Of a stretch of DNA of 64,000 bases, positions 14,033 to 49,177 are shown in pieces. Source of the stretch: Squalus acanthias (Eukaryota); NCBI GenBank assembly GCA_030390025.1, contig CM059431.1, forward strand, positions 149,670,001 through 149,734,000, given 5' to 3'. Positions within the stretch are counted from its first letter, which is position 1. Each line of letters starts with the position of its first letter. Below the pieces are notes generated by a model that was not told the DNA's origin, searched no databases, and saw only the letters and a program-made list of their open reading frames with translations. The position numbers were made by a program, and so were the translations under genes.

Positions 14033-14034
14033 GT

Positions 14035-22630: not shown

Positions 22631-22631
22631 C

Positions 22632-26699: not shown

Positions 26700-28190
26700 C
26701 CCGACAAACCTTGGTCCTTTTCAAAGAGTGACGTCAGAAGTTAAAAGTGACGTCGGCACAAAGGAGGGAGCTGATTGGTGAGTATCCGGTAAGTGTTTTT
26801 AATTTTTACTTGGCTTTCTTAAGGTTTTAAGTTTATTCCAACGAGGTTAGTAAATTCGAAATTAATTAGAGGTATAGCAGGGCAGCACACACCCGTGGAA
26901 TGCACATTCTGTGCCCTGTGGGAAGTACTGGACACCTCTCGTGATCTGGTCGACCACATGTGCGGGAAGTGTCGCCAGCTGGAGCAACTCCAGCACCGGG
27001 TTACGGAGCTTGACCGGCGGTTGCAGTCACTGCTGTGCATTCACGAGGCTGAGAGCTACGTGGCTAACACGTTTCGGGAGGTGGTCACCCCGCAGCTTAA
27101 GAGTGTGCAGGCAGAGAGGGAATGGGTGACGGTCAGACAGAAGGGGAGGACCAGGCAGGGTGTCCAGGAGTTCCCTGAGCCCATCTTGGTCACCAACCAG
27201 GATTCGGTACCGAGTACTGGTGAGGGCAATGGTTCCTCTGGGGAGTGCAGCCACAGCCAAGTCCACAGCACCGTGGAAGGCTCAGCTGCACACAAGCGCG
27301 GGCGGGGGGGTTGGCGTTGAAGAGGAGAGGTAGAGCACTAGTGTTTGGGGACTCAATAATTAGGGGAGCAGACAGATTGTTTATGCGGCCGCAGACGTGA
27401 CTCCAGGATGGTATGTTGCCTCCCTGGTTCCAGGGTCAAGAATATCACTGAACGGCTGCAGGGCATTCAGAGGGGTGACAGTGAGCAGCCAGAGGTCGTG
27501 GTCCAAATCGGTACCAACGACATAGGTAGGAAGAGCGATGACGTCCAGCAGGCAGAGTCTCGGGAGCTAGGAAATAGTTTAAAAAGCAGGATGTCAAAGG
27601 TCGTATATCCGGAATACTAACAGTGCCACGTGCTAACGTGGTAAGAAATAGAAAGATAGAGCAGATGAATGCGCGGCTGGAGAGATGGAGTAGGAGGGAG
27701 GGCTTTAAATTCCTAAGGAATTGGAAACATTTCTGGGGCAGGTGGGACCTCTACAAGCCAGACGGGTTGCATCTCAACGGAAACTGCACCAATATCCTCG
27801 CGGGAGAGTTACTATTGCTGTTGGGGAGGGTTTAAACTAGCTTGGCAGGGGGATGGGAACCTAAGTATAGAGTCAATAGGGAGGGAAGAAAAACTTGAAT
27901 TGGAAAACAAAAACGTAGAAAATAAATTGGAAGAACAGAGAGTCGATGGTAAGATAGTAGTCAACAAGGAGGTTTGCCTGCACTAAATGGTATATACTTC
28001 AATGTAAGGAATATAGCGAACAATGCAGATGAGCTGATGTTACAGGTAGACACTTGGTACTATGATAATATAGCTATTACATCGAGGTGGCTGAAATAAG
28101 GGCAGGTATGGCAGCTCAACATTCCTGGTTGCAGGATGTTCAGACGGGATAGAGAGAGAAGTAAAAAGGTAGGGGGTGGAGACGCGGTAC
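26700..28190 (+). mobile_element. CR1 LINE 5' part (5' UTR, ORF1, start of ORF2), 3'-truncated at the 32-bp satellite
   Basis: ECTFCALWE..HMCGKCRQL, VCCLPG..VVVQIGTNDIG and YKPDGLHLN (SGNH esterase), followed by the degenerate start of the endonuclease. Confidence 0.9.
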
Positions 28191-29205
28191 TGGGAGATTT
28201 ATTACTGAGTTCGACTACTCACTGGGGCATTTATTACTGAGTCCGACTCCTCAATGGGAGATTGATTACAGAGTCCAACTACTCACTGGGACTTATTACT
28301 GAGTTCGACACCTCACTGGGAGATTTACTCCAGAGTCCCACTCCTCACTGGGAGAATTATTACTGAGTCCGACTCCTCACTGGGACATTTATTACAGAGT
28401 CCGACTGCACACTGCGACATTTACTACAGAGTCCGACTCTTCACTGGAAGATTTTTTACAGATTCCGACTCCTCACTGGGAGATTTATTACTTAGGCCGA
28501 CTACACTCTGGGACATTTATTACTTAGGCCGACTACACACTGGGACATTTATTCCAGAGTCCGACTCCTCACTGGGAGATTTATTACCGAGTCCGACTTC
28601 TCACTGGGAGATTTATTACCGAGTCCGACTTCTCACTGGGAGATTTATTACCGAGTCCGACTTCTCACTGGGAGATTTATTACCGAGTCCGACTTCTCAC
28701 TGGGAGATTTATTACCGAGTCCGACACCTCACTGGGAGATTTATTACTGGGTCCGTCTCCTCACTGGGAGATTAATTACCGTGTCCGATTCCTCACTGGC
28801 GAATTTATTCCAGAGTCCAACTCTTCCTTGGAATGTATATTACTGAGTCCGACAGCTCACTGGGAGATTTATTACAGTGTCCGGCTCCTCACTTGCAGAT
28901 TTATTCCAGAATCCGTCTCCTCATTGGAAGATGTATTGCTGAGTCCGACTACTCACTCGGAGATTACTTCCTGAGATCGAATCCGCACTGCGACATTTAT
29001 TTCAGCGTTCGACACCTCACTGGTGGATTTAATCCAGAGTCCGACTCATCATTGGGAGATATATGACAGAGATCGACTTCTCACTGGGAGATTTATTACA
29101 GAGTCCGACTCATCACCGGGAGATTTATTACAGAGTCCGACTCATCAATGGTAGATTTATTAAAGAGTCTGTATCCGCACTGTGAGATTTATTACAGAGT
29201 TCGAC
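28188..29205. repeat. 32-bp tandem repeat (GAGTCCGACTCCTCACTGGGAGATTTATTACA)
   Basis: About 32 copies, with several identical consecutive units at 28589-28716. Confidence 0.95.
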
Positions 29206-30451
29206 TAAATGGATTATTACTAGTCATAGCCCATTTATGGCTAGCCCGGATCAGCCGTATTCCCCAGAATTTCACCTTCAACTAAATTTAGAGTTAGCCA
29301 AATCCTAAAAATCATTAAATGTGTCTAAAGGTCCAGACTATCTCTCCCTAAAGCAAAGGAATGAGCTGAAGATGTCACCGTCCTCCAGATAACACTTTTT
29401 AATAAGTTTAGCTAGACTGTAACCTTCCGGATATTATGAGGGTCCGGAAAATTCCCCCAGAATTCTGCAACTCCTCACCAAAGAATTTACACAGATTGAG
29501 TTTGGGAGTTGGATACAGAAATACTATTTGGGACAAATATAAAAATATATAGAATTATTTAAGAACCGAGATGTAATTACAGTTGTTGATTCAATCGCAA
29601 CTTTCACAATTCCAAAAAAAAATTATATTCTTATCATCAGAGATCTTTTTTTCTTATTTCTTACCTTCGTTACATTTTTACATTTCTTAGTCTATTCCAG
29701 GATATCTACCAAAATCAAATACAAGTACCTTTGATCCCCGAGACTTAAAGAGTTGAAAACTTACAGAGCTTGCCTCTAAAGCCTGCGAACCTCTTTGCCA
29801 CTTCAGCGACTCTATCTTCCTATTTGAAAGTTCTATATGTATACTCTTTCTCTCTGATGTATCCTTTGAAGTTTTCTGCTGATGTAAGCTAATTAACTCT
29901 AGTAAGTTTTCTGTTGACCCCTTCTATTCTTACAGTTAGTTCAGCTTGTAGCTTGTAGAATTGTGTCTGCTGTGTAGGTGTCTCAAACTTATCATAAAAA
30001 ACGGTGTAAAGATGTAATTCTTACCAAGGGCTTCTGTTTAATTCATAATTCACCTTAGCTGGTTGCAACACAGATTTGTGTCTCCTAGGTGTTCGAAGTT
30101 CAACACAAAAACAATGTGATGGCTGTTACATCTATTGATATCATTCTTACGAAAGCATATGTTTCTTTATCAATCTCTGTTTCTTTTCAAAGTGTTGGTT
30201 TAAGATACCTTTAACTGGGTATGGTATTGTCTTGTTTCCAAAGCTGCAGACATCTCGGAACCTTTAACCTTCTATTTCAATGAAGCTATTGTTCATGTTT
30301 CAAAAACTTATCTTATCTCAAAGGCCTGTATGCTGATTATAGCTTCTGATTGTTGAGGCTTTCTGATTTCCAAGCACAATTTGTAATGTTGAATACAGTC
30401 AGAATTATTTAATAGGATGTTGTATATTTCTGAAAATGGCATATTCCTTCA
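29206..30451 (-). repeat. 3' LTR of the foamy-like ERV
   Basis: Colinear with 40848-42125. Minus-strand start TGAAGGAATAT follows the PPT. Confidence 0.9.
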
Positions 30452-30455
30452 CACA

Positions 30456-30463
30456 CCCCTCTT
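30456..30463 (-). promoter_or_regulatory. Polypurine tract
   Basis: AAGAGGGG lies 4 nt upstream of the 3' LTR on the minus strand. Confidence 0.65.
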
Positions 30464-30622
30464 GACCAAAAAATGAACTGGACCATCTGGATAGAGTTTG
30501 GTCAATGTTTATAATAAGGTTACAACAGCACATTAATTTCAGGAGATTCACAATCATGTGCTACATGAAAATTTATTTTAATTCATCATAGGACAACGTT
30601 TTTCTCTTATTTTAAATTGAAC

Positions 30623-31068
30623 TCAATTTAAAAGGATGATAGGTACATAGTCATGCATGTAGCAAAACAGCATGTACTTAGAATCTTCAGTCGGCAGATG
30701 TACGTTCCGTAGAGATGAGTTATTCATACGAGTCAAGGAGACGTCATTTGGAATTTGCTGAAGCTTGACACGCTTTTCCGTCGATCCGGCATGTGTACAG
30801 ATTCTTGTTTTCACAAAGGCCTTGCCAGGCGCACAGTTGATTCCTTCTTCATCCGTGGTGTCTTTCGTCCTCGCTGACGAAACTCGTTGATCTTTCCTTG
30901 TTTCGGCTGTTGCTTTTCGTGACACCAATTCCTGATGCGCTGACAAGCATCGTGTGGAGGAGTCAGCGACACCATCAGATTAAACATCGTCAGTATTTCG
31001 ATCGCATCCATTTCTGTGTCGTGCTCCAAGCTGGGTCTTGAAAACCAGTGTGCGACTGCACCTTGCAT
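30623..31068 (-). pseudogene. Remnant ORFs between pol and the 3' LTR (env leader and/or accessory gene residue)
   Basis: Overlapping ORFs 30811-31068 and 30623-30946 start at the end of IN. No SU/TM sequence is recognisable. Confidence 0.4.
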
Positions 31069-31084
31069 TGTTCCTCCATTTCGG

Positions 31085-34000
31085 TATCCCCCAGGACATC
31101 TTTTTGAGATTTTCGATGGAAACAGTTTTAAGAATATGCTTGCCAGTCGGCTAATTAATATGTATTTGAACTGTTCTTTCGTTAATAACAGAATGTATTT
31201 GAACAGGTTTTTTCCACTTCGATCTTAAACCAGGTTTTTGCTCGAACTTCTATTCCTGTCCCATTCTCCTACTAGGGGTTGCCATGCTTTGTTTCTCAAT
31301 TTTTTCTGCCTATTTGCTTCCTTTATCTTCTGATCAATTTGATGAATCTCCTCTGTTACTTCTTTTTTCAAATCTAACTGTCGCTGTCGGGTCAAGTTCT
31401 CAGGTCTGTAGAGGCAATAAAAGAACTATGGGTAAGCGGTGTATGCAGCTCAACCCCATACATCAGATAATATTGATTTTTAAGGGTCACTGTCCCTGAT
31501 GCAGATGCGGGCTCATAATTGAGTGTTAGCTGCACCTCCGTAATGATGGTGGTCCACTTATTCCCCTGATTCTCAACAGTTTGAGCAATACCTTTTTTTA
31601 CTTCCTGGTTTTTACGTTCCAGCAGCCCCGCTGATTGCGGATGATGTGGAGTGCTCTGCTCTAACCCAATCCCCCTTTGTTCGCAGTAGTCTTCGAAGAC
31701 CTTGGATACAAAGGCTCAGCCTTGATCAGAGTGTAAGATTTTATGTGCACCGGCTACAGTAATAATGTCAGAAATAGCATTGGCGAGTGTGTTTTCTGAA
31801 ACAGTTTTTGTGTGGACCAGCCAGCAGAAGGAAATGCATCCATCTACACAAACGAGAACATGTCTGTATCCCAAAGACGGGGGAAGTGGTCCAATAAAGT
31901 CAATAAAGAATATTCCCATTGCCTCATCAGCTTTCAAACGAGCCAATAGAAACATAGCCCGTCGAGCCTGCTCCACCATTCAATACGATCATGGCGGATC
32001 ATCCAAATCCAGTACCCTGTCCCTGCTTTCTCACACAGAATCCCCATCGAGCCTGCACCGACACATATCACCCCCCTCTCCCCGTAACCCCACGTATTTA
32101 ATTCCTCCTAACATATCCCTTCCTATCTTAACCCCGTAACCCCACATATTCAATCCCCCCCTAACACTAAGGGTCAATTTATCTTAGCCAAATCAACCTA
32201 ACCCGCACATTTTTGGACTGTGGGAGGAAACCGGAGCACCTGGAGGAAACCCACGCAGACACGGGGAGAATGTGCAAACTCCACACAGACAGTCACCCGA
32301 GGCCAGATTCGAACCCGGGTCCCTGGCGCTGTGAGGCAACAGTGCTAACTACTATGCCACCGTGTTGCATAGTAGTTAGCAATGGTGGTGGGTTAATTAG
32401 TGCTAACTTATTGGTTGCATTGCATAGCTCACAATTTGCCACAAACTTTTTACAGGACTTAAGCATGCCTGGCCACCAATATTAGGGGGACAATTTGCAG
32501 AATGTTGTTCTGGCTCCACAGTGTGCTTGACTTATGCCCTCGTGAGCTTCTTTTACAATCTGTTCTCGTTTGTGTCTTGGGGGTACTTATCGATTTCCTT
32601 TGGGCAACTTAACTAGCACAGTACCCGTAGGGGATTCTGAGTAAAAGTACTTTTGTGGAAATCCTGGTGGATTCTCTTTTGTTGGGTCTAATAGCTGAAT
32701 CAGTTCCTCATCCTGATTAGCTGCCCGTTCTGCCCTAGTGATTACAATAACACTGGCAGGCCCCTCTCGAGGGGGTGATATGCAGACCGAGCGTTTCGCT
32801 TGTTCGTCTGCAAGACTGTTTCCTTTGAGTGTACTATCCCAGTTGTATGCCCGTTTACATGAATCACCTGACAATTCTGTTTCTCCATTCTAGAACGGAG
32901 AATGTCTTCCAACAATTACTTATGTTTTATTGGTTTACCTTATGGTTGGTAAGATTTGTTTGTTCCCAGAAAACTAGATCTTGGTTTTATCCTCTTTTAC
33001 AACAGTCACTATCCATACAGACCAGTTTGAGTTTAATAAGGTCTACCTTTTCTAATGCATACCATAATGCTGGGGCTTCAGCAATATTTCGCTGTCTTAT
33101 GGCCAAGGGTTATAGTCAGTAATTCTTCTGGATAAAAAGAATCGAAATCTCGAAATGTCCCTACTACTATCCCCATCCCAGCTGAGGATTGTTGGGATGT
33201 CCATTTTTAAATCATGATTGACGATCCATCGCAGTAAATTATTTGATCTTATTCTGTAAGCGGTCTCATAGGTTTTTGTTTTATTGCCTCTCCGTATCAT
33301 CATCCTCCATGATGGGGACATGCTGTAAGTCCATTTCCGGGGAGAAGAATTTACAAATGAGTGTAGAATCATTCAAGAACGATGCCCATTTATCATATCG
33401 GATCTGGGTGGCTCTTTTTTCATCAGACGCCATCATCAATACTGATCTTAAATCGGAATCTCAGTGTAGATGGTAATGGGGTATTTCCATTGAAGGGTTC
33501 GTGCCTTGAAGAGGCATTGGACTCCCATAATCATGACCCTTTCTTTTTTAATGTATCTCGTTTCGACGTTGGAAATGTTCTAAGAATGGAAATGAATGGT
33601 TACAATGCCCTTTTCATTATATAAAACTGCAACTGCCACTTTAGGAGATGACAGGAGATGAATATTAAGAGGAACTTTTAAGTCTCTCTGTTCCAGGTCT
33701 ATGGCATTATGTACATATCGGCATAATTGTTGCCATTTTGAGTAATTGTCTGGAGAAAATGTGAATGGTCCTTTTGCTGCTTCTCTCACTCTAGCATACA
33801 GGGGTGCTGAGAGCTCGGCAACGTTTGGCGTAAAGTATCGAGCAAAACTCAGGAGTCCTGAACTTGCTTGCAGATTTTTCAGAGTTTTAGGATATTGAAT
33901 ATTGGCTATTTTTTCTTAATAGGTTTTAGTTAATATTTATATTTTTCCCTCGTGATTCCAGAGAGAAGGGCTGTTAATTTTGCTGTTGTGCAGTATGTGT

Positions 34001-34730
34001 GGCGGGCACCCTATTTAAGGCTCTATAATCGACACTAATCTCCATATCCCATCTGGTTTAGCAACACCAAACAATGGTGACTTAGTTCTAGATGCCATTT
34101 TGATTAAGATATCTTACTCTGTTAGTTCTTTGAGCGTTTTTAGGAGATCTATTTTTCCTTTGTGGTCTTGAATAGGTCACTGTTTTTTAGGTTTGTGCCA
34201 GCCAGCATCAGGTGGGTGGGGTTTGATGTCTAGCTTTTCGCATTGAATTGGATGGCGTTATAGATAAGGGTTGTATCTATTAATTAGTTGCTCGAGGAGA
34301 TCTTTTCCTCCCCCCTCTTAGCAAGTTCGATCAAGCAGTGTCCGAACACGTTTTTCCCTGTCATTCTGGTCTGTTGATGCTTCTACAGGTCTGGTTGAGA
34401 TTTTAAGGTAATATTTCATGTCTGGTTTTCCTATAATGAGGGAACAGGCCAATTGTGGTACCAGTCCTACATCTAGGGTCACCGTGATTCCATATACAGT
34501 AATAGGTATTTTGTATAAATTAATTACTTTGGTTTTGTCTTGTGTGAATCCCCCAAATGATCTTTTACAAATTGGGCTCCCCAAATGTGTCCACTTAGTT
34601 TTTATAATTGCAGGATCTATTACAGTTTAATCAGCACCCGTTTCAAACAGGGCCTTCACTTGTGTGTTTGTGTGTAAGGTTGCCAGGGCATAGGGGAATT
34701 CAAGAGGACCTGGCTGGGTGCCAGCCCTGC
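31085..34730 (-). pseudogene. pol: Foamy-like pol (PR-RT-RNase H-IN) with stops, frameshifts, an RT-palm deletion and a SINE insertion
   Basis: PR KALFETGAD. RT PLFGVAKPDGIWRLV.DYRALN and PKTLKNLQ..GLLSFARYF. Connection KRATQIRYDKWASFLND. RNase H IYCDGSSI and KGNSLADEQAK. IN N-terminal extension ELIQLLDP..PGFPQKY, HHCC (AHEG..AHCG..WWPGM..CELC), core FFIDFIGPLPPSLGYRHVLVCVD..HSDQG, and CTD WQPLVGEW.QE..LRSKWKKP..INERTV..KTVSIENLK. Confidence 0.92.
31946..32368 (-). mobile_element. HE1-like tRNA-derived V-SINE inserted in the integrase
   Basis: Head with A box (TGGCATAGTAG) and B box (GGTTCGAATC), V-domain-like GTGTGGAGTTTGCACATTCTCCCCGTG, and CR1-type tail. Near-identical to 60835-61262. Confidence 0.9.
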
Positions 34731-35724
34731 AATCCTGGGATTTTTCATTATCAGGATCCTGAGTTTCATTTGCTGCTTTGTCTTTAATTATTTTAAATGA
34801 TTTTTGTTCCTCCCTCTTTGGGGTTTTATATTTTCCAGATCCCTGAGGGGGTTTTTCGGACCGTTTATTATCTTGACGATTCTGTTGTTGGGCTGGATTT
34901 TGGTTCTGCTGGGAATCTTTTTGATCGCCATTTCTGTTTTCCATGGCTGTCTGATAAATTTGGCCAGTGTAAAAGCTGTCCCCATAGGGAGTCCACGGTC
35001 CTTCGCTTTTGTTTCGAGATCTTGCCACTCGTCTTTCCCATCTTTCTGGGGAGAAATCTTTCTCATATTGTGGGCGAGTTGGGGGTGTAAACCTTCTGGA
35101 ATACCCTCTTAGGTGTCCCGAGCCACGGCTTTGTGTCTGGGCGGGGTGGATTGAGACTTGAGTCCATACGTCCCTTCTTTCTGAGTACCAAAGCTATCAT
35201 CTCCGGTTTTTTTCCCCGAGTTTCAGATCTCATTACAGGTTTACTTCGAGGTAGACCTAAGAGGTCATGATTTAATTGTACCATGCGATTCACAATATCC
35301 CATCTTGGTTGGTTATCTCGATAATCGTTTAGTGCACACTCACAGGCAAGTTTGAGGGCTGTATTTCGGTATTGATTGGCGAGGCAACCATGGAAAATGT
35401 CCCAGTTATCCTGTGTAACTACTTTGCCTAATCTGTAGGCAGTTACCAGCCTCATAGTTGTGGCTGCATTAGTGAGTATTTCCTTAATGGAAACCATTAC
35501 ATGCCCTCTTTGAGTTGCCCTGAGAACATAGGCGTATATTTTAAACCAATTTTTACACTGGTTTAATGGGTAAATTTAGTCTGAACTTAGTATCATTTGC
35601 AGTAGTTGTCGGAGGGGTTGGGCATTCCAATCTAGGCAACAGGATTCCAATTTATCAAGGTTAGTTAGAATCCAGCAGGTTTTTTTCCCGACTGGTGTTT
35701 CCCGGTCTACCAGACATTGTGTAG
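34731..35724 (-). pseudogene. gag: Foamy-like gag, capsid-like central and basic C-terminal part
   Basis: RLVTAYRLGKVVTQDNWDIFHGCL...QLNHDLLGLP resembles the foamy Gag central domain (TAFNLG...NWSLVWG...YTMLGL, recalled). Q/N/K/R-rich tail with no CCHC knuckle. Confidence 0.8.
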
Positions 35725-38700
35725 ATAGAAGCATAGAAGCATAGAAGCATAGAAGATAGGAGCAGGAGTAGGCCATTCGGCCCCTCGAGCATGCTCCGCT
35801 TTTTAATGAGATCATGGCTGATCATCGAAATTCAGTACCCTGTCCCTGCTTTCTACCCATATCCCTTGATCTCTTTAGTCTTAAGAAATATATCTGTCTC
35901 CTTCTTCAATATATTTAATGAATTGGTCTCAACTGCCTTCCCGTGTAGAGAATTCCAGAGGTTCACCACTCTCTGGGTGAAGAAATTCCTCCTCATCTCA
36001 GTCCTAAATTGATTACCCCTTATCCTTAGACTGTGAGCTCTGGTTCTGGACTCCCCCGCCATCGGGACATCCTTCCTGCATCTAGTCTGTCTAGTCCTGT
36101 TAGAATTTTATAAGTTTAAATGTGATCACCCTCATTCTACGAAACTCTATCGAATATAAACCTGACCGACCCACTCTCTCTTCATACGTCATTCCGGCCA
36201 TCCCAGGTATCAGTCTGGTAAATCTTCGCTGCATTCCCTCCATGGCAGGAATATCCTTCCTCAGATAAGGCGAACAAAACTGCACACAATACTCAAGGTG
36301 TGGTCTCACCAAGGCCTTGTACAACTGCAGCAAGACATCCTTGCTCATGTACTCGAATCCTCTCGCCTATGAAGGCCAACATACCATTTGCCTTCTTAAC
36401 AGCCTGCTGCACCTGGATGCTTACCTTCAGTGACTGGTGCACAAGGACACCCATATCATGTTGCACTTCCCCTTTTCCAAATGTATTGCCTTTCAGATAA
36501 TAATCTGTCTTCCTGTTTTGGAAACAAAGTGGATAACCTCGCATTTATCCACATTATACTGCGTCTGCCATGCATCTGCCCAATCACCCATACTGTCCAA
36601 ATCATACTGGAGTTTCTCTGCATCCTCCTCACAGCACACACGCCCACCCAGCTTTGTGTCGTCTGCAAATTTAGAGATATTACATCTAGTTCCCTCGTCT
36701 AGATCATTAATATATATTGTGAATAGCTGGGGTCCTAGCACCGATCCCTGTGGTACCCCACTAGTCATTGCGTGCCACTCAGAAAAATACCCGTTTATTC
36801 CAACTCTTTGCTTCGTGTCTGCAAAACAGTTCTCTATCCAAATCAGTACCTCACCCCCAATCCCATGTGCTTTAACTTTTTTACGCTAATCTATTATGCG
36901 GGACCTTATCGAAAGCCTTCAGAAAGCCCAAATACACCACATCCACTGTTTTTCCCTTGTCTATTCTAACAGTTAGATCCTCAAAAAATTCCAGCAGATT
37001 AGTCAGGCATGATTTCCATTTTGTAAATCCATGTTGTCTTTGTCCGATCCTGTCACTGTTTTCCAAGTTCTCTGCTTTTACAGCTTTTATAATGGACTCT
37101 AGCATTTTGCCTACTATCGATGTCAGGCTTACCGGTCGATAATTCACCGTTATTTCTCTACCATTTTTTTAAATAGTGGGTTAACATTAGCTACCCTCCA
37201 ATCCATGGGAACTGTTCCAGAGTCTATAGAATTTTGAAAGATGATCAGCAATGCTTCTATTATTTTTAGGGCCACTTCCTTAAGTACCCTAGGATGTAGA
37301 TTACCAGGCGCTGGGGATTTATCGGCTTTCAATCCCGTCAATTTCCCTAACACCATTTCCCTACAAATAGTGATTTCATTTAGTTACTCCCTCTCATTAG
37401 ACCTATGTTCTCCGACATCGCTGGGAGTTTATTTGTGTCCTCCTTCCTGAAGACAGAACCAAAGTATGCATTTAATTCGTCAGCCATTTCTTTGTTACCC
37501 ATTTTAAATTCCCCTGATTCTGACAGCAAGGGTCCTACGCTTGAATTCATCTATCTTTTTCTCTTCACATATCTATAGAAGCTTTTACGGTCAGTTTTTA
37601 TATTCCCTGATGCTTACGCTCATATTTTATTTTCCCCCTCTTAATTAATTCCTTTGTCCTTCTTTGCTGAATCCTAAACTGCTCCCAATCCTCAGGTTTG
37701 CTGCTTTTTCTGCCCAAATTCTATGTCCTCTCCTTGGATCTTATGCTATCCCTAATTTCCGATGTTAGCCACGATTGAGTCACCTTTTTTTTTATTCCAA
37801 TCAGGGATGAACTAATTCTGTAGTTCATTCTTGCGATCTTTAAATGTTTGCCATTGCCTATCCACCATCAAACCTTTAAGTAACACTCCCCAATCCACCT
37901 TAGCCAACTCGCGCTTCATAACATCATAGTTATCTTTAATTAAATTCAGGACCCTAGTCTCTGAGTCAACTACTTCACTCTCCATCTTAATGAAGATTTC
38001 TATCATATTATGATCGCTCCTCCACAAGGGGCCTAGCACAACAAGATTTCTAATTAATCCTTTTCATTATATAATACCCAGTCTAAGATGGTCTGAACTC
38101 TAGTTGGTTCCTCAACATATTGGTCCAGGAATCCATCCCGTATACACTCTAGGAATTCCTCCTCCACAGTATTGTTACTAATTTGGTTAGCCCAATCTAT
38201 ATGTAGATTATAGTCACCCATGATAACTGCTGTGCCCTTATTGCACTCATCTCTAATTTCCCGTTTAATGCTATCCCCAACCTCAGTATTACTGTTTGGG
38301 GGTCTGTATACAACTACCACTAACGTTTTCTGCCCGTTGGTATTACAAAGCTCGACCCATGCAGATTGCAATTCATCAGAGCTAATATCCTTCCTTACTA
38401 TTGTGTTAATATCGCTTTAACCAGCAAAGCTACCCCACCTCCTTTTCCTTTTTATGTCCTCCTGAATATCGAATACCCTTGGATGTTGAATTACCAGCCG
38501 TGGTCACCCTGGAGCCATGTCTTCGTAATCCCAATTATATCATATCCACGTACATCTATTTGCGCAGCTAATTCATCCACCTTATTGCGAATGCTTGTCG
38601 CATTAAGACACAAAGCCTTCAGACTTGTTTTTAATACACTCTTAGTTCTTTTATAATTATTTATACTCTAGCCGTGTTGGATTTACACACTTGATTTCTC

Positions 38701-40003
38701 TGCCTTCCACAATTGCTTTTCTCCCTCCTGTCTTTTGCTTCTATCCTTGCTTCACTTTCCTCTGTTTCGCTGCACAGGTTCCCAACCCCCTGCCATTTTA
38801 GTTTAAACCCTCCCCAACAGCACTAGTAAACACTCCCCCTGGGACATCGGTCCCGGTCCTGCCCAGGTGCAAACCGTCCAGTTTGTACTGGTCGCAGCTC
38901 CCCCAGAATTTGAATCCCACCCCCTTGCACCATTCCTCTAGCCACGTATTAATCAGCAATAGCTTTCTATTTCTGCTCTGACTAGCACGTGGCACCGGTA
39001 GCAATCTGAGATTACTACCATTGAGGTCCTATTTTTTAATTTACCTCATATCTTCCTATATTCAGCTTTTCGGACCTCATCCCGTTTTTTACCTGTATCG
39101 TTGGTACCTATATGCATCACAACAACTGGCTGTTCACCCTCCACCAACAGAATGCCCTGCAGCCGCTCCGAGTCATCCTTGACCCTTGCAACTGGGAGAC
39201 AACATACCATCCTGGAGTCTCGTTGGCGGCCGCAGAAACGCCTATCTATCCACCTGACAATCGAATCCCCTATCACTATAGCTCTCCTGCTCTTTTACCT
39301 CCCGTCCTGTGCAGCAGAACCACCCATGTTGCCAGGAAGTTGGTTGCTGCTGCCTTCCACCGATCAGCCTCTCCCTCAACAATATCCAAAGTGGTATATC
39401 TGTTTGAGAGGGGAATGTCCACAGGGGACCCCTGCACTACCTGCCTGCACAAACTACTCTGCCTATTGGTCACCCATTCCCTTCCTGCCTGTGCAGCTTT
39501 TACCTGCGATGTGACCAACTCGCTGTACGTGCTATCCACGATGGCCTCAGCATCGCGAATGCTCCAGTATGCATCCATTTGCAGCTCCAGTGCCGCAATG
39601 CGGTCTGCCAGTAGCTGCAGCTGGATACACTTCCCGCACACATTGTCAACAAAGACAAAGGAAGTGTCCCTGATTTCCCACATAGTGCAGGAGGAGCATG
39701 CCACGTGGCTGAGCTGTGCTGCCATGACTTATCCTTTAATTCTAACAAATTAACTCTAATCAATACCACAAATTGCATTACAATTAAATGATATACTCAA
39801 GGGCCCTAGTATACTAGCACTCCCTGCTACACAACAGAGACATTAGAAACAATAACCACTAAACTTTATAAACTATTAAACTCAACTGTCAAACTACAGA
39901 GTAGTATAAATACTCACCTGGCCGTACTCACCCAATCAGCTGCTTCCTCTTCTCCACATCACTTTTTGAATTGTGATGTGCTCTGGAACGCCGCCGCCGG
40001 TCA
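35725..40003 (-). mobile_element. Essentially full-length decayed CR1 LINE inserted into gag
   Basis: ORF1 (39725-38798: CSSC..CGKC, GDS, GTND, DGLHL), endonuclease (38371-37812), RT (NYRPVSL, KAFDKVPH, GVPQGSVLGP, FADD) and (TTCTATGC)3 tail at 35725-35756. Confidence 0.95.
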
Positions 40004-40599
40004 GTTTTACTTGAACTAGGGGTGCAATTTGTGATTGTTGGGGTTGGCTTACTGGACCAGTATTCACCGGGCCTCCAGCATTCATATAAGATTGAGCTAG
40101 TGCCTGTCGGCATTGATTATACTGGATTCCAAGCTCTCCATAGGATTCTAAGCACTCTGTAATATTCTCGAAGATTCTTGTCATTTATTTCATCATGAGC
40201 TTTCCAGCTTAATCGGAATCCATGGCCCCCAGGAGCATAGGCTGCTCCGAGTCCTATTATTCGCCCATGGTTGCCACCACCGTGTTGGGCACCGATCATT
40301 AGGCCTCCGTATTGTGCGGGTGTGCACCTTATCATTAAGGAATTTAGTGGATTTGGAGTATTTGTTTGATTATCCCACTGGGTATTCTGTATCACCTAGT
40401 TCTGGGGATCAACATCAATTGTGCCATAATTTCTAATGGCACCGTCGGCATCAAAGCCTTCTATTTCATAAATTATCACTTGTTTTTGTGGAGGTAAAGG
40501 GAGAGGATTATTTCCCCTAATAAAGCAATCGTGTGAATTTCCTAATAAAAATTCTTGGCCAATTCCGACAAGGTTTGCCATTTCGTCAGGACCTAACAT
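40004..40599 (-). pseudogene. gag: Foamy-like gag, N-terminal part
   Basis: First ATG ORF ~230 bp downstream of the PBS. ORFs 40396-40599 and 40117-40395 are in frame and frameshift into 39936-40184. Assigned mainly by position. Confidence 0.65.
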
Positions 40600-40827
40600 C
40601 GGTTAGGGTTTAACATGAATTTTATAAGAAATTTCTAGAACTCAATGTTATATTGAGGGAGTTCTAACTTATGTTCTACAAAAAAACATGGTCAGGGACA
40701 TGTCGTCTCTAGAGACTTAAATCTGTGTCTTAGTACCACTGTCAGTAAAACACTCCTTCTGTACTTAACACTCTACAAGATGGATTTAGATATAAATATA
40801 AGTATAGGTTTCGTATCAACTCATTAA

Positions 40828-40845
40828 CACACACATTGGGCGCCA
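40828..40845 (-). promoter_or_regulatory. Primer-binding site, tRNA-Lys1,2 type
   Basis: TGGCGCCCAATGTG lies 2 nt after the LTR-terminal CA; the canonical foamy PBS is TGGCGCCCAACGTGGGGC. Confidence 0.9.
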
Positions 40846-40847
40846 AC

Positions 40848-42125
40848 TGAAGGGATAATTACTAGTCCTTGCCCCTTTAGGGCTCCCCAGATCAGGCGTA
40901 TTTCCCAGCCGTTCACTTTCAGCTAAAGTTTGAGGTAGCCGAATCCTAAAGACATTTAACTGGATCTAAAGGTCCAGACTATCTCTCCCAAAAGGAAAGG
41001 AACAACCTGAAGATGTTACCGTCCTCCAGAAAGCACTTTTAGTAAGTTAAGCTGGATGGTAACGTTCCGGATATTATGAGGGTCTGGAAAACTCCCTCAG
41101 ATTTCTGCAACTCCTCACCAAAGAATGTACAGAGATTGAGTTCGTGAGTTTCATACAGAAGTATTAAGTGAGACAATTCTAAAAATATATAGATTTATTA
41201 AAGAATCGAAATGTAATTACAGTTGGTTTTTCAATCGCAACTTTAGCAATTCCAAAAAGAGTAAGCTTTTACGATCTTATTATCAGAGATACTTATTATC
41301 GAAAACTTTACTGCGTTACATTTTTACATTTCTTAGTCTTATTCCTGGATATCCACCAAAATCAAATACAAGAACCTTGATCCCCGAGATGCAAAGAGTT
41401 GAAGACTTACAGAGCGTGCCTCTGAAGATGAGAATCGCTTTGCCCCTTTAGAGCGAATCTATCATCCCATTTGAAAGTTCAATTTTTATAAATATTTACA
41501 ATGGGATTATTTCCTTTGAAGATTTCTGCTGATGTCAGTTAAATATCTCCAGTCATTTTTATTCTCACCCCTGCTATTCTTACAGTCAGTTCAGCTGGTT
41601 GCATTAAGAATCGTGTCTCCAACATTAGGTGTTCGAAGCTTAATATAAAAACGATGTGACAGCAGATGTATCTATTTGATGTCATTCTTACCAAGGTCTT
41701 CTGTTTGTGTTTTTTTACGACGTGTAAATCAAAAACACCTCAACCGGGTGCACCATTGTTTTCTTAGTTACCTCAACTGGTTGCAACACAGAATCGTGTC
41801 TCCTGTGTTTCATTTGATGTCATTTTTACGAAGGCATATGTTTCTTATTTTTCTTCGTTTCTTTCTAAAGTGTAATTTAGGACAGCTTAACAGGGTGTAC
41901 CATTATGTTCTTTCCAAAGCTTCAGACTTCAAGAGCTTCCAACCTACTGTTTCAATAAGGTTATTGATTCAGTGTAAAGAAATTATCTTATCTCAAAAGG
42001 CTGTATGCTGTTTACAGGTTCTCCAATGTTAGGTTTTTAGATTTTCAAGCCCAGTTTGTCATGTTACAAATGCCAGAATTATTTCATAGAATTGTGTATT
42101 TTTCGGAATATGGCTTATTCCTTAA
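40848..42125 (-). repeat. 5' LTR of the foamy-like ERV
   Basis: Ends ...ATCCCTTCA, an inverted repeat of the TGAAGG start. Minus-strand TATAAAA at ~41484-41490 and AATAAA at 41194-41199. Confidence 0.9.
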
Positions 42126-45100
42126 GAGTCTAACCATCAGCGATCCGTTTTGAAGAGGGAGACTCACCATAAGGGATCAATTTTAAAGAGGGAGTCTCAC
42201 CATCATGGATCCCTTTTAAAGAGGGAGACTCAACATCAGGGACCTCTAAAATGAGGGAGTCTTTCTGTCAGGTACCTCTTTTAAAATGAGAGTACCCCCA
42301 TGAGGGACCCCTTTTAAAGAGAGAGTCTCACCATCAGGGACGCCTTTTAAAGTGAGAGTTTACATATTAGGGAACACTTTTAAAGATTAAGTCTCGTGAT
42401 CAGAGACCGTTTTAAAGTGGGAGTGTTTCTATCAGGGAGCCCTTTTAAATCGGGAGTCTCACCCTTGAGAACCCTTTTAAAGTGAGAGACTTTCTATCAA
42501 ATTCCCCTTTTAAAGAGGGAGTCTTTCTATCAGAGACCCCTTTTAAAGAGAATCTTCCTATTATGGACACCGTTTAAGGAGAGTCGCACCATCAGGAATA
42601 TCTTGTAATGAGAGAGTCTCATCATCAGTGACCCCTTTTAAAGAATGAGTCTCATCATCAGGCACTCCTTTTAAAGAAGGAGCCTCACCATCAGGGATCC
42701 ATTTAAAAGATTGAGTCCCACATCAGGGACCCCATTTAAAGAGGGTGTCTCACCATCAGGGACCCCTTTTAAAGAGGGAGTCTCACCATCAGGGACGCCT
42801 TTTAAAGAGGGTGTCTCACCATCAGGGACCGATTTTAAAGAGGAAGTCTCCCCATCAGGGATACATTTTTAGGAGGGAGTCTTTCCATCAGGGAGTCCTT
42901 TTTAAAGAGTGATTCCCACCATCAGAGATACTTTCAAAGAGGGATTATTTCTCTCAAGGAGTCCTTTTAAAGTGAATCTTAACATCGGGGACCCCTTTGA
43001 AAGAGAGATTCTCACAGTCATGGACCTCAGTTAAAGAGGGAGCCTCACCATCATAGACTGTTTTAAAGAGGGAGGCTTTCTATCAGGGAGCCCTTTTAAA
43101 AATTCACTCTTAGCCTCGGGGACCCATTTGAAAGAGAGAGTCTTTCTATCAAGGTCGACATTTAAAGAGAATCTTCCTGTTAGGCACACATTTTAAAGAG
43201 AGAGTTTCACCATCAGGGACACCAATTTAAGAGGGAGTATCCCCATCAAGGGACAATGTTAAAGAGGGTGGCTCACAACCAGGGACCCCTTTTTTTGAGG
43301 GAGACTCACCATCAGGGATCACTTTTAAAGAGAGATACTCGCCCTCAGGGTCACCTTTTAAATTGGGAGTCTCACCATCAGGGACACCTTTTAAAGACCG
43401 TGATTAAGCATCACTTTTAAAGAGAGATGCTCACCATCATGGGCCCCTTTTAAAATGTAAGTCTCACCATCAGGCAAAGCTTTTAATGAGGAAGTCTTCC
43501 TATCAGCGACCACTTTTAAAGAGGGAGTCACACCATCAGGGACCCCTTTTAAAGAGAGAATCTCTGCACCAAGGACCCCTTTTAAATAACGAGTCTCACC
43601 ATTAGGGACACATTTTAAATAGGGAGTCTCACCATCAGGGAAACCATTTTAAAGATGGTGAGTCACCATCAGGGAACCAATTAAAGAGGTTGTCTCATCA
43701 TCAGGTACCACTTTTAAAGAGAGAGTCTCACCATCAGAGACCCCTTTTAAAATGATAATCTCCCCATTAGGGATCCCATTTAAAGAGGGAGTCTCGCGAT
43801 CCGAGACAATTTTAAAGAGGGAAACTTTCCATCAGGGAGCCCTTTTAAATCGGGTGTCTCTCCCTTTGGGTCCCATTTTAAAGAGAGAGTTTTTCTATCA
43901 AGGCCCCTTTTAAAGAGAGAGAATTTCTATCAGTGGCCACTTTTAAATATAATCTTCGTATTCGGGGCAACATTTAAAGAGTGTCTCACCATCAGGGATC
44001 CCTTTTGAAGAGTGTGTGTCTCAATCAGGGATACATTTTAGATCGGGTATGTCACCATCAGGGAACTCTTTTAAAGATGGTGTCTCACCATAATGGACCC
44101 CTTTTAAAGAGGGATTCTCAACATCAGGTACCACCTTTAAAGATGGAGTCTCGCCATCATGGGCTATTTTAAAGAGTGAGTGTTCCCATCAGGGAACGCA
44201 TTTAAAGTGGGATCTCATCATCAGGGACACCTTTTAACGAGAGAGTCTCCCCATTAGGGATAACTTTAAAAGAGGAAGTCTCACCATCAGGGATTCCTTT
44301 TAAAGAGGGAGATTTTCTATCGGAATCGTTTTAAAGAGGGAGTCTCACCATCAGAGACCCTTTCAAAGAGAGAGCCTCACAATCAAAGAGCCATTTAAAA
44401 GAGGGGGCCTTTCTATCAGGGAGTCCTTTTAAATAGGGAGTCTCTGCCTTGGGGCCCCATTTTAAAGAGAGAGTCTTTCTATCAGGGACCTCTTTTAAAG
44501 TGGAACTTCCGATTGGGAAACCGTTTAAAGAAAGTGTCTCACCATCAGTGACCCCATTTGAAGAGGGCGTGTCCCCATCAGGGACACCTTATAAAGAGGG
44601 AGTCTTTCTATCAGGGACCCATTTTTAAGAGAACCTCCTATTAGGGACATCTTTTATAGAGAGAGATTCCCCATCAGGGACCCATTTAAACAGGTAATAT
44701 TTTTATCAGGGATCACTTTTGATGAGGGAGTATCTCCCTCAGGGACACCTTTTAAAGAGAGTCTGTCTATCAGGGACCACTTTAAAAGGGAGAGTCTCGA
44801 CCAGGTATCCCTTTTAAAGGAGAGTCTCACCATCAGGGGTTCCTTTTAGAGAGGGAGCCTTACCATCAGGGACACGTGTTAAAGAGGATGTTGCAGCATC
44901 AGGTACCCCTTTTAATGAGAGAGTCTCTTCACCAGTGACCCCTTTTAAAGAGGGAGTTTCAGCATCAGGGACCCCTTTTCTAGAGATAGTCTCTCCATCA
45001 GGGAGCCATTTCAAAGAGGAGTCTCACCATTAGGGACCACTTTTAAAGATTTTATTTCAGCATTAGGGTCTCATATTAAAGAGGGTGTCTCACCATCAGG

Positions 45101-48100
45101 GACCCATTTTAAACAGGGAGTCTCACCTTCAGGGACCACTTTTAAAGAGAAAGTTTTGTTAATGAGGAAGTCCCACCCTTGGGGATATATTTTAAAGTGA
45201 GAGTCTTTCGATCAGCGACCCCTTTTAAAGAGGATGTCTTTCTATCAAGGAGGCCATTTAAATATGCAGTCTCACCCTTGGGGAACCATTTTAAAGAGAG
45301 AATCTTTCTATCAAGGTCCCCTTTTAAAGATGGAGTCTTTCCATCAGGGACCCCTTTTAAAGAGAATGTTCGTTTTAGGGACTCCGGTTAAAGAGAAAAT
45401 CTCACCATCAGGGACCCTTTTTAAAGATGGAGCATCGCTATTAGGGATCCAGTTTAAATATGGATTATCTCCATCAGAGACCATTTTAAAGATGGAGTAT
45501 GTCTATCAGGCTGCCCATTTAAAGAGCGTGTCTGACCATCAGGGATCCATTTTAAAGACGGACTCTCACCATGAAGGACACCTTCTAAAGAGTGAGTCTC
45601 ACAATCAGGGTTCACTTTTAAAGAGAGTTTTCTCACGGTCAGTGACCCATTTAAAGAGAGAGTCTACCCATCAGGGATCCCTTTTAAAGACGGAGTAGCA
45701 CCATCAGGGATACCTTTTAAAGAAGGAAACTCAGCATCAGGGACCCCTTTTAAAGAATGAGTCTCGCCATCAGGCACTCCTTTTAAAGAGGGAGGCTCAC
45801 CATCAGGGATCCATTTTAAAGAGTGAGTCCCCCATCAGGGACCCCATTTAAAGAGGGTGTCTCACCATCAGGGACCCATTTTAAAGAGGGAGTCTCACCA
45901 TCAGGGACGCCTTTTAAAGAGGGTGTCTCACCATCAGGGACCCCTTTTAAAGAGGAAGTCTCCCCATCAGGGATACATTTTTAGGAGGGAGTCTTTCCAT
46001 CAGGGAGTCCTTTTTAAAGAGTGATTCCCACCATCAGAGATACTTTCAAAGAGGGATTCTTTCTCTCAAGGAGTCCTTTTAAAGTGAGTCTTACCATCAG
46101 GGACCCCTTTGAAAGAGAGATTCTCACACTCATGGACCTCAGTTAAAGATGGAGCCTCACCATCAGGGACCTCTTTTAAAGAGAGAGTCTCACCATCAGA
46201 GACTGTTTTAAAGAGGGAGGCTTTCTATCATGGAGCCCTTTTAAAAATTCACTCTTAGCCTCGGGGACCCATTTGAAAGAGAGAGTCTTTCTATCAAGGT
46301 CGACATTTAAAGAGAATCTTCCTGTTAAGCACACATTTTAAAGAGATAGTTTCACCATCAGGGACACCAATTTAAGAGGGAGTCTCCCCATCAGGGACAA
46401 TGTTAAAGAGGGAAGCTCACAACCAGGGACCCCTTTTTTGAGGGAGACTCACCATCAGGGATCACTTTTAAAGAGAGAGACTCGCCCTCAGGGTCACCTT
46501 TTAAATTGTGAGTCTCACCATCAGGGACACCTTTTAAAGACCGTGATTAAGCATCAGGTAGCCCTTTTAAAGAGAGATGCTCACCATCATGTGCCCCTTT
46601 TAAAATGTAAGTCTCACCATCAGGCACAGCTTTTAATGAGGAAGTCTTCCTATCAGCGACCACTTTTAAAGAGGGAGTCACACCATCAGGGACCCCTTTT
46701 AAAGAGAGAATCTCTGCACCAAGGACCACTTTTAAATAACGAGTCTCACCATTAGGGACACATTTTAAATAGGGAGTCTCACCATCAGGGAAACCATTTT
46801 AAAGATGGTGAGTCACCATCAGGGAACCAATTAAAGAGGTTGTCTCATCATCAGGTACCACTTTTAAAGAGAGAGTCTCACCATCAGAGACCCCTTTTAA
46901 AATGATAATCTCCCCATTAGGGATCCCATTTAAAGAGGGAGTCTCGCGATCCGAGACAATTTTAAAGAGGGAAACTTTCCATCAGGGAGCCCTTTTAAAT
47001 CGGGTGTCTCTCCCTTTGGGTCCCATTTTAAAGAGAGAGTTTTTCTATCAAGGCCCCTTTTAAAGAGAGAGAATTTCTATCAGTGGCCACTTTTAAATAT
47101 AATCTTCCTATTCGGGGCAACATTTAAAGAGAGTGTCTCACCATCAGGGATCCCTTTTGAAGAGTGTGTGTCTCAATCAGGGATACATTTTAGATCGGGT
47201 ATGTCACCATCAGGGAACCCTTTTAAAGATGGTGTCTCACCATAATGGACCCCTTTTAAAGAGGGATTCTCAACATCAGGTACCACCTTTAAAGATGGAG
47301 TCTCGCCATCATGGGCTATTTTAAAGAGTGAGTGTTCCCATCAGGGAACGCATTTAAAGTGGGATCTCATCATCAGGGACCCCTTTTAACGAGAGAGTCT
47401 CCCCATTAGGGATAACTTTTAAAGAGGAAGTCTCACCATCAGGGATTCCTTTTAAAGAGGGAGATTTTCTATCGGAATCGTTTTAAAGAGGGAGTCTCAC
47501 CATCAGAGACCCTTTCAAAGAGAAAGCCTCACAATCAAAGAGCCATTTAAAAGAGGGGGCCTTTCTATCAGGGAGTCCTTTTAAATAGGGAGTCTCTGCC
47601 TTGGGGCCCCATTTTAAAGAGAGAGTCTTTCTATCAGGGACCTCTTTTAAAGTGGAACTTCCGATTGGGAAACCGTTTAAAGAAAGTGTCTCACCATCAG
47701 TGACCCCATTTGAAGAGGGCGTGTCCCCATCAGGGACACCTTATAAAGAGGGAGTCTTTCTATCAGGGACCCATTTTTAAGAGAACCTCCTATTAGGGAC
47801 ATCTTTTATAGAGAGAGATTCCCCATCAGGGACCCATTTAAACAGGTAATATTTTTATCAGGGATCACTTTTGATGAGGGAGTATCTCCCTCAGGGACAC
47901 CTTTTAAAGAGAGTCTGTCTATCAGGGACCACTTTAAAAGGGAGAGTCTCGACCAGGTATCCCTTTTAAAGGAGAGTCTCACCATCAGGGGTTCCTTTTA
48001 GAGAGGGAGCCTTACCATCAGGGACACGTGTTAAAGAGGATGTTGCAGCATCAGGTACCCCTTTTAATGAGAGAGTCTCTTCACCAGTGACCCCTTTTAA

Positions 48101-49177
48101 AGAGGGAGTTTCAGCATCAGGGACCCCTTTTCTAGAGAAAGTCTTTCCATCAGTGAGCAATTTTAAAGAGGAGTCTCACCATTAGGGACCCCTTTTAAAG
48201 AGTTTGTTTCAGCATCAGGGTCTAATATTAAAGAGGGTGTCTCACCATCAGGGAGCCATTTTAAACAGGGAGTCTCACCTTCAGGTACCCCTTTTAAAGA
48301 GAACGTTTTTTAATGAGGAAGTCTCACCCTTGGGGATATATTTTAAAGTGAGAGTCTTTCGATCAGCGACCGCTTTTAAAGAGGAAGTCTTTCTATCAAG
48401 GAGGCCATTTAAATTTGGAGTCTCACCCTTGGGGAACCAGTTTAAAGAGATAATCTTTCTATCAAAGTCCCCTTTTAAAGATGGAGTCTTTCCATCAGGG
48501 ACCCCTTTTAAAGAGAATGTTCGTTTTAGGGACTCCGGTTAAAGAGAAAATCTCACCATCAGGGACCCTTTTTAAAGATGGAGCATCCGTATTAGGGATC
48601 CCGTTTAAATAGGGATTCTCGCCATCAGAGACCATTTTAAAGAGGGAGTATGTCTATCAGGCTGCCCATTTAAAGAGCGTGTCTCACCATCAGGGATCCA
48701 TTTTAAAGACGGACTCTCACCATCAAGGACACCTTCTAAAGAGTGAGTCTCACAATCAGGGTTCACTTTTAAAGAGAGTGTCTCACGGTCAGTGACCCAT
48801 TTAAAGAGAGAGTCTACCCATCAGGGATCCCTTTTAAAGACGGAGTAGCACCATCAGGGATACCTTTTAAAGAAGGAAACTCAGCATCAGGGACCCCTTT
48901 TAAAGAGGGAGTCTCCCCATCAAGGAACCTCTTTTAAAGAGGGAATTTCAATATAAGGGAACCCTTTTAAAGAGGGAGTCTAACCCTCGTGGACCATTTT
49001 AAAGATAGAATATTTCTATCAGGGACCCCTTTTGAAGGGTAAGTCTCGAAATCAGGGACCCCTTTTAAAGAGGGAGACTTACCATCAGGAATCCATTTTA
49101 AAGAGAGAGACTAACCATCAGGGACCACTTTTAAAGAGGGAGTCTCACCATCAGGGACCCCGTTTAAAGAGGGAGTC
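42126..49177. repeat. 33-bp satellite A, reverse orientation, with a ~3.1-kb higher-order duplication
   Basis: Identical ORFs 43981-44172 and 47133-47324 (offset 3152); also 44814 vs 47966. Confidence 0.95.

Follow-up and report, generated by a model that had tools for sequence, protein, structure and literature searches.

The window (the whole stretch of DNA analysed, 64,000 nucleotides of Squalus acanthias) contains a dead copy of an endogenous foamy-like retrovirus, which lacks env and carries a deletion in reverse transcriptase (RT). The main interest lies in the history of its family within the host genome, and not in this decayed copy. We put a probability of about 0.75 on a history in which the family entered the germ line enveloped, lost env and spread inside cells with the aid of helper copies.

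The order LTR–PBS–gag–pol–PPT–LTR given by the original prediction, with a Lys1,2 PBS and inserted CR1 and SINE elements, is borne out on the minus strand, and its coordinates hold. Starting at the 5′ terminus, the 5′ LTR (40848..42123) merges into a 33-bp satellite so that its terminal TGTG is unreadable, and it ends in CA. A 2-nt GT spacer precedes the primer binding site (PBS) for tRNA-Lys(CTT) (40828..40845). In the family, 14 nt of the PBS correspond to the 3′ terminus of the tRNA-Lys(CTT) encoded by the host itself (13 of 14 in the window copy), and the two diverge beyond. The 5′ part of gag (40001..40581, from the ATG at 40581) is interrupted by stops and frameshifts, and is followed by a CR1-type LINE inserted in gag on the same strand (approximately 35730..40000). 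The RT piece of this LINE is 66–75% identical to named cartilaginous-fish proteins, compared with 45–57% for bird, turtle and frog proteins, which supports the predicted shark or ray host. The 3′ part of gag (34732..35729), also broken, encodes a Gag_FV_central domain (Pfam match above cut-off, E 5e-8) and a G/R/Q-rich tail without a Cys-His box. The gag/pol boundary codon (34729..34731) is a sense codon in this copy, with gag and pol in the same frame. The broken pol (31040..34728, end approximate) comprises protease, RT, RNase H and integrase. Its RT has a 364-bp deletion at ~33933 that is also found in six other copies, and its RNase H–integrase region contains eight stops and eight frameshifting indels. 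A SINE-like insertion, to which no strand is assigned, lies in integrase (~31948..32379). The segment 30468..31063 holds an env remnant of ~80 N-terminal codons (the only env in this copy), the family-wide env deletion junctions and the 3′ untranslated region. Next come the 3′ polypurine tract (PPT; 30454..30467), with a GGGTG PPT/LTR border of the kind described for foamy viruses (PMC5210030), and the 3′ LTR (29206..30453), 81% identical to the 5′ LTR and of the same subfamily. The flanks are two different satellite arrays, with 32-bp units (28189..29206) and 33-bp units (42125..48302), and no target duplication of this copy is readable.

The integrase motifs ELIQLL..GFPQKY and FFIDFIGPLPPSLGY, on which the foamy assignment was first based in part, are present in the window as claimed. 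The C-terminal integrase motif is also present, but is split over two frames with stops. Like the exogenous foamy viruses (PFV, SFV and FFV), the family has a Lys PBS, YVDD, a GGGTG PPT border, a 4-bp target duplication (in 12 of the 13 scorable copies; unreadable in the window copy) and long LTRs as predicted, exceeding 1.1 kb. Gag has the central capsid domain, a G/R-rich tail and no Cys-His box; the predicted lack of a zinc knuckle agrees with the absence of CX2CX4HX4C from all 37 natural Gag C-terminal pieces.

The foamy-like identity is confirmed by solved-structure matches, Pfam domains, Env matches in the family and the RT tree. The Pol of a natural relative is ~40% identical to simian foamy Pol over RT, and the solved structures matched are foamy Pol (E 3e-141), Ty3 (6e-48) and MLV-type RT (2e-33). 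The Pfam domains found in the family are Gag_FV_central, Spuma_A9PTase (weak), SH3_11 and Foamy_virus_ENV. Members that retain env match foamy Env, the TM match being PDB 8rm1/8ozh. A database search with the open frame of the 5-kb deleted copies described below (minis) returned no relatives other than one simian foamy Pol and proteins of the Gypsy-like type.

The foamy-like clade of the RT tree has a support of 100/100, ERV-L itself not being among the named rows, and within it the element groups with tetrapod foamy viruses (97/99). It stands apart from the gamma-type, Gypsy and frog class III rows. The AU test rejects grouping with the Callorhinchus row (p 0.003) or the teleost rows (p 0.0008), the third AU p value obtained being 0.004; these rows are stand-ins named by host only, and the Callorhinchus row P0072 may not be CmiFLERV. 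The tree was built without coelacanth, newt NviFLERV, reptile, bird or named teleost FLERV sequences, and seven rows stand outside it (two Gypsy-like, one second Pleurodeles and four unnamed). These conclusions rest on RT; an integrase tree, which lacked support values, was set aside. On this placement the lineage is not basal: it is nested among tetrapod foamy viruses and separate from the Callorhinchus row. The suggestion of an undescribed deep lineage stands in that the element differs from the published catshark element ERV-Spuma.0-Sca, and falls as regards depth.

ERV-Spuma.0-Sca (small-spotted catshark, PMC10699275) is likewise a shark foamy-like element present in hundreds of copies. 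It is 9,220 nt long, with 866-nt LTRs that start differently and a 1.3-kb env ORF, and is reported to group with teleost Aci/AliFLERV. The present element is not ERV-Spuma.0-Sca, being set apart by that description and by the opening 400 nt of the catshark sequence. The family also resembles the fish foamy-like elements CmiFLERV (PMC5512871) and the teleost FLERVs (PMC5210030), which have a Lys PBS, a 4-bp target duplication, the GGGTG border and a GQR-rich Gag tail. CmiFLERV (Callorhinchus milii) is known from pol only, and teleost FLERV gag and env have no detectable foamy homology in the latter paper, whereas in the shark family homology of both is detected. The nearest rows of the RT tree (96/94) are a Logan protein of 1,687 aa (P0007) and a Scyliorhinus torazame predicted protein (P0008), which are only 36–42% identical to the element. 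P0007 is one continuous Gag-Pol frame and, like the shark family, has a DTG protease. P0008 consists of an incomplete RT joined to a PR/SET gene model.

Unlike those of exogenous foamy viruses, gag and pol of the family occupy one frame with an intervening UGA, there is no pol AUG and the protease motif is DTG. The family lacks the separate, AUG-initiated pol of mammalian foamy viruses. The boundary codon is UGA in 31 of 42 copies, the commonest spacing of the gag-pol motifs is 450 nt, in frame (16 of 32 copies), and 24 of 25 copies have no Met between the boundary stop and the protease site. Since the shared frame is split by UGA in most copies, Pol was likely made by readthrough rather than from an AUG of its own. 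Against this, the boundary is a sense codon in 10 of the 42, including one of the two readable env-bearing copies. Hairpins folded from six natural boundary stretches differ and were obtained without a shuffle control, so no readthrough structure is claimed.

The family is almost wholly env-less and high-copy, again unlike the exogenous viruses. The genome-wide count called for by the original prediction gave ~325 PBS-bearing copies by an exact-motif pattern search (327 with the leader pattern) and 6,021 LTR ends, with env DNA at only seven places. Each of the five pattern searches gave 0 in its backward control. A figure of 11,913 integrase candidates was rejected as a copy number in favour of the ~325 proviral copies given by exact motifs. 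One env deletion junction is common to 79 of the 80 env-less copies with both anchors; L145 retains 234 nt more. The gag-pol DNA of env-bearing loci is 84–94% identical to that of the env-less copy L011. No clear shared accessory ORF of >=70 aa follows env in four decayed env-bearing copies. Minis of ~5 kb make up 51 of 88 classed copies. In these the start of Gag is fused in frame to RNase H–integrase, at junction A (65 by pattern search) or junction B (66), both of which end immediately upstream of the first acidic residue of RNase H, and 1.76–1.78 kb of 3′ pol is retained. Splicing was rejected as the source of the mini and env junctions because the junctions have 1–4 nt of microhomology and no GT donor.

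The family probably reached the germ line as an enveloped virus, after which one lineage would have lost env and then likely spread by intracellular retrotransposition. Defective copies such as that in the window were probably carried along by helper copies, and the in-frame Gag-start/RNase H–integrase fusion may have brought the minis a further cis advantage. PFV deficient in Env does retrotranspose in cells (PMC3185757), whereas with feline foamy vectors no intracellular retrotransposition was detected, which counts against such spread. Movement of env-less copies between cells, relying on the Env of env-bearing proviruses or of a circulating virus acting in trans, is an improbable alternative. 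The reported requirement of Env for foamy capsid export would favour it, as would the alleles that B minis share with env-bearing haplotypes. The LTR divergences also overlap, being 0.032 and 0.059 for env-bearing copies and mostly 0.02–0.07 for env-less ones, a range that leaves out L079 and L091, which are not LTRs, E_C20, whose partner is a nested LTR, and the doubtful pairs L085, L088 and L098. Yet the env loci are few beside the PBS-bearing copies, the gag-pol env-less haplotype has linked variants of its own, and by LTR it clusters separately from the env-bearing copies.

Intracellular spread with deleted followers has a parallel in the mouse IAP/IAPE/1-delta-1 series (PMC6466679), where an enveloped ancestor gave rise to an env-less intracellular spreader and then to a common non-autonomous form with an in-frame gag-pol deletion. 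That series is betaretrovirus-like, whereas the shark family is foamy-like and has at least two separate in-frame minis, each with ~1.8 kb of 3′ pol.

The placement of the deletions suggests a reason for this retention. All seven repeated deletions leave the integrase frame untouched (p ~0.011 for uniform placement; p ~0.03 for the four large ones), though they are partly dependent, the 111-nt deletion travelling with D1, D2 and D3. Integrase DNA is missing from none of 21 leader-sampled copies with both ends visible (in the other 19 of the 40 sampled, the two ends are not both in view). The CAS-II of foamy vectors spans ~1.8 kb of 3′ pol (PMC5035957). Every repeated deletion retains the 3′ 1.7 kb of pol along with the leader and 5′ gag, and would do so because these RNA regions act like the packaging signals CAS-I and CAS-II; the 5-kb minis would be natural vector-like genomes. 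Such conservation of what present-day foamy viruses require for packaging would likely attest the age of the packaging rule. Several observations run against a CAS-II-like function. Integrase DNA is absent from the single copy L097 and in part from L063 (L092, at one time taken as an integrase deletion, was dropped as it proved to be an inserted LTR). The sole internal PPT-like copy found, in L011, precedes integrase, whereas in PFV the retained region has a PPT copy at its 3′ end. If Pol was fused to Gag, moreover, the Pol-encapsidation role of CAS-II would be unneeded.

The 3′ pol might instead be kept mainly because the Gag-start/RNase H–integrase protein of the minis, or its translation, aids its own RNA in cis, with no packaging signal involved; we regard this as unlikely, though less so than Env supplied in trans. 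Junctions A and B preserve the frame, as do the single variants L020, L117 and L145 (net 3270, 3306, 3324, 3351 and 3462 nt), the two junctions both fall just short of the acidic residue, no mini subfamily is marked by a shared non-CpG frameshift, and the mouse 1-delta-1 fusion works in cis (PMC6466679). The three single variants are, however, possibly derived from B. Deletions that break the pol frame have also been copied with integrase DNA kept, namely those of 364 nt (seven copies) and 1272–1273 nt (six copies, four of them 1273). Among RNase H–integrase transversions, linked shared variants comprise nine synonymous and seven replacement changes compared with 88 and 484 for singletons (Fisher p 3e-4), a sign of purifying selection on the linked variants that counts in favour of the family history proposed above; transitions alone give no significant signal (p 0.12). 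The minis have no variant set of their own, the linked variants occurring also in helper and env-bearing haplotypes, so that selection cannot be assigned to the mini protein, and no mini-private variants are under selection. A signal within the mini lineage (A, p 2e-4) was accordingly reinterpreted, the shared variants being inherited helper or ancestral haplotypes. Packaging-like retention remains the preferred reading.

The LTRs of the window copy differ by 90 transitions and 136 transversions (K2P 0.21), and this 19% mismatch is likely to reflect local hypermutation rather than great age, a locally raised, transversion-rich mutation rate having probably produced it. An origin of the two LTRs in different subfamilies is not supported, both having the diagnostic alleles of the same one. 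Recombination between two insertions, or an element far older than the family, could also explain the mismatch; the unreadable target duplication, the differing satellites on the two sides and the 33-bp satellite in both orientations within the window are consistent with this. It is nonetheless rather unlikely, falling between the other two alternatives. Besides the common diagnostic alleles, the 364-nt deletion is shared with copies of ordinary age (LTR K 0.041 and 0.032), and the interior is similarly transversion-rich (59 transitions, 73 transversions), at 7.5% compared with 2–5% for most other copies. Two neighbours at the same chromosome end are transversion-rich as well. The neighbour L147, 0.5 Mb away, has kept its target duplication and yet has an LTR K of 0.143 (66 transitions, 101 transversions). 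A rearrangement between two copies of the same subfamily may have taken place.

It is possible, at somewhat short of even odds, that the family represents an elasmobranch foamy lineage nested with tetrapod foamy viruses that combines UGA-readthrough Pol, an env-less spreader and repeated vector-like minis. No prior report of its history, layout or tree position was found in the literature searched, which took in neither subscription journals nor Repbase and Dfam. PMC8922424 calls endogenous foamy viruses rare; in this cartilaginous-fish family, foamy Gag, Pol and Env can still be recognised, and more than 6,000 LTRs remain. One genome would record the passage from an enveloped foamy-like virus to an intracellular retroelement, intermediates included. 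The position apart from the chimaera row would suggest either a cross-class jump or the existence of several ancient lineages of foamy virus among cartilaginous fishes, and the one-frame gag-UGA-pol layout bears on the timing of separate Pol expression in foamy viruses. The repeated natural deletions serve as a mapping experiment for cis signals, in which the part kept matches the CAS-II of laboratory vectors. If the combined reading of the lineage given above is true, the two-part CAS-I/CAS-II signal would predate, and be separable from, the spliced-Pol strategy regarded as a foamy hallmark.

The window copy lies on the minus strand and has the predicted order LTR-PBS-gag-pol-PPT-LTR, with a CR1 and a SINE inside it. 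Starting from the 5′ LTR (about 42123–40848), a GT spacer leads into the PBS, which in this family is complementary to host tRNA-Lys(CTT) over 14 nt, in agreement with the lysine primer proposed. Gag starts at 40581 and is split by the CR1 (about 35730–40000), beyond which its remainder lies. The strand continues as pol, which contains the SINE (about 31948–32379) and ends at about 31040, and then passes through the PPT into the 3′ LTR (30453–29206). Env is present only as a remnant. The integrase motifs listed in the original prediction are all found, the C-terminal one being split by a frameshift. This copy is a dead element, because its RNase H–integrase region has 8 stops and 8 frameshifting indels and its RT carries a 364-nt deletion, common to six other copies (L094, L096, L103, L106, L134 and L143). 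The inserted CR1 suggests a cartilaginous host: its RT shares 66–75% identity with proteins of Leucoraja, Chiloscyllium, Hypanus and Callorhinchus, against 45–57% with those of bird, turtle and frog. The surrounding region looks rearranged. A 33-bp satellite reverses its orientation between one side of the element's surroundings (6046–22633) and the other (42125–57597), and the window also holds several further tandem arrays as well as CR1 copies.

Identity was examined with the natural open pol frame of L011, a copy 89–90% identical in DNA to the window copy, with broken gag and neither 5′ LTR nor env. Its best PDB matches are foamy Pol (PR-RT, E 3e-141; PFV integrase, E 4e-78), with Ty3 (E 6e-48) and MLV-type RT (E 2e-33) weaker. 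It is 38–40% identical to simian foamy Pol, and its top match among 1.8 billion representatives is feline foamy Pol. Pfam matches in the family are Gag_FV_central, SH3_11 and, weakly and partially, Spuma_A9PTase. In an RT-connection tree of 25 rows (7 left out), which carry host names only and do not include published foamy-like ERV sequences, the element groups with P0007, a Logan protein of 1,687 aa, and a Scyliorhinus torazame RT (96/94). The proposed grouping with foamy viruses thus stands (97/99), the position being nested beside the mammalian foamy viruses and a Pleurodeles row rather than deep. The teleost rows (99/99) and the Callorhinchus row fall apart from this clade. In AU tests three alternative groupings of the element were rejected: beside the Callorhinchus row (p 0.003), beside the two named chondrichthyan rows together (p 0.004) and beside the teleost rows (p 0.0008). 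The S. torazame gene model (P0008) joins its foamy-like RT piece to a PRDM-type PR/SET domain, and this fusion is probably an artefact.

The foamy-like lineage is real and, as claimed, probably undescribed. Foamy-like ERVs of sharks are already known; the available parts of that literature (PMC10699275, PMC5512871, PMC4422223, PMC5210030, 10.1101/2020.12.18.423569) and of related papers (PMC5035957, PMC3185757, PMC6955096, PMC12642411, PMC6001957, PMC8922424, PMC6466679) contain no match to the family. Nor was a report of env loss, minis or one-frame gag-pol found in the parts covering shark elements. Since gag and pol share a frame, departing from a defining feature of mammalian foamy viruses, the element is filed as foamy-like and not as a strict-sense member.

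At the gag–pol boundary, 16/32 natural copies have 450 nt between the Gag G/R motif and the protease motif, and in 19/32 the two motifs are in frame. Of 42 copies, 31 read UGA at the codon lying 24 positions ahead of the protease motif; ten have a sense codon instead and one a different stop. Among env-bearing copies, one shows a stop at this site and another a sense codon. No Met precedes the protease active site in 24/25 copies, and the nearest tree row, P0007, is a single continuous Gag-Pol frame. The simplest reading of these sequences is that Pol would be made by stop readthrough, while splicing onto an upstream AUG may be the source instead. At this codon (window 34729–34731 and its homologues) the third position departs from UGA in nine of the 42 copies and the other positions in two; the third-position departures exceed expectation from the 2–4% background.

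The searched genome has 6,021 occurrences of the LTR end motif against 325 LTR-PBS junctions and 327 leaders, so the majority of family LTRs are likely solo. Family copies end in TG...CA, with a 4-bp target duplication in 12/13 scorable copies. The Foamy_virus_ENV profile matches 11 places at six loci, and an env DNA probe seven places. Each of the six env loci examined is a family member with env immediately 3′ of pol, and an env piece matches foamy Env structures (E 7e-13). Both anchors of the env deletion are present in 80 other copies. In 76 of them the spacing across it is identical, three deviate through an insertion or small indels, and L145 retains more env. L145 (G000:C6:104353007–104363006) is a ~5-kb mini whose LTR clusters with those of env-bearing copies, possibly an early or separate deletion form.

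LTR-pair divergence in the family is mostly K 0.02–0.07. A K of 0.04 would correspond to about 40 My (0.5e-9, PMC10699275) or 90 My (2.2e-10, PMC4422223), rates that those papers assume. The window pair has K 0.21 with an excess of transversions. Its two LTRs have alleles of one subfamily, and the interior of the copy diverges by 7.5% from the column yardstick (most other copies, 2–5%). The copy L147, 0.5 Mb distant, retains its target duplication intact and has K 0.143 with the same transversion skew. Local hypermutation is the likely cause of the high divergence, judged from these patterns; rearrangement is also possible, because the two flanks of the window copy differ. The window copy, L147 (G000:C7:149159746–149169745) and L148 (G000:C7:149636320–149646319) are 8–11% from their relatives with transversions exceeding transitions, whereas control pairs elsewhere are 5–7% apart and transition-rich. 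All three lie in a satellite-rich part of C7, suggesting a local mutation hot region or an assembly-quality effect.

Before later insertions, 15 of the 20 first-fetched copies were ~5 kb minis, the LTR not being visible in some. These comprise the leader, 19 or 38 gag codons, RNase H–integrase, PPT and LTR. Two junctions recur, A 65 times (≤1 mismatch) and B 66 times (≤2 mismatches). To escape integrase-based sampling, the first 100 leader matches listed were taken; by position 20 were A, 16 B and 12 RT-probe matches. Forty of the other 52 were fetched (12 left out, giving 88 classed): 12 A-type, 3 B-like, 11 gag-kept but RT-deleted, and 14 of gag-pol type or truncated, with full env in none of the 40. 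Minis are thus 51 of the 88. Contigs from four organisms with different codes contain junction B as well as a gag deletion of 993 nt (L121:1739–5093 and 2124–3118); both forms are likely older than the split of these organisms, unless the labels denote close relatives.

The reading frame is kept across A, B and three single variants, and broken by the 364-nt deletion family and most of a 1273-nt family. All seven repeated deletions spare integrase (p about 0.011 under uniform placement; 0.03 for the four large ones alone, independence being imperfect). Integrase DNA is missing in 0/21 leader-sampled copies with both ends in view and in 2/36 others, each a single case. According to the available parts of PMC5035957 and PMC3185757, PFV requires two regions for RNA packaging: CAS-I, which spans the leader plus at most about 200 nt of gag, and CAS-II, some 1.8–2 kb of 3′ pol. 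The minis retain 57–115 nt of gag and 1.76–1.78 kb of 3′ pol. By this comparison the retained region is a putative packaging signal. The 3′ pol might instead be kept through a cis-acting fusion protein, as in the mouse gag-pol deletion form IAP 1-delta-1 in the available part of PMC6466679.

In RNase H–integrase, singleton variants look neutral (N/S about 3). Among transversions, linked shared variants are synonymous to replacement 9:7, against 88:484 for singletons (p 3e-4); the enrichment is not significant for transitions (p 0.12). The linked variants define two haplotypes, the older found in env-bearing copies and B and the later in env-less gag-pol copies. Both haplotypes occur among A minis, and no variant in the shared sets is private to minis. 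Because the linked variants are synonymous-enriched and none is mini-private, selection was acting on the replicating lineage and is not assigned to the mini protein. In this region A minis (L049–L088, L014–L030) are mosaics, some with the later gag-pol haplotype and others with the older one common to B minis and env-bearing copies. Their mosaicism for two haplotypes points to repeated recombination of A minis with helpers.
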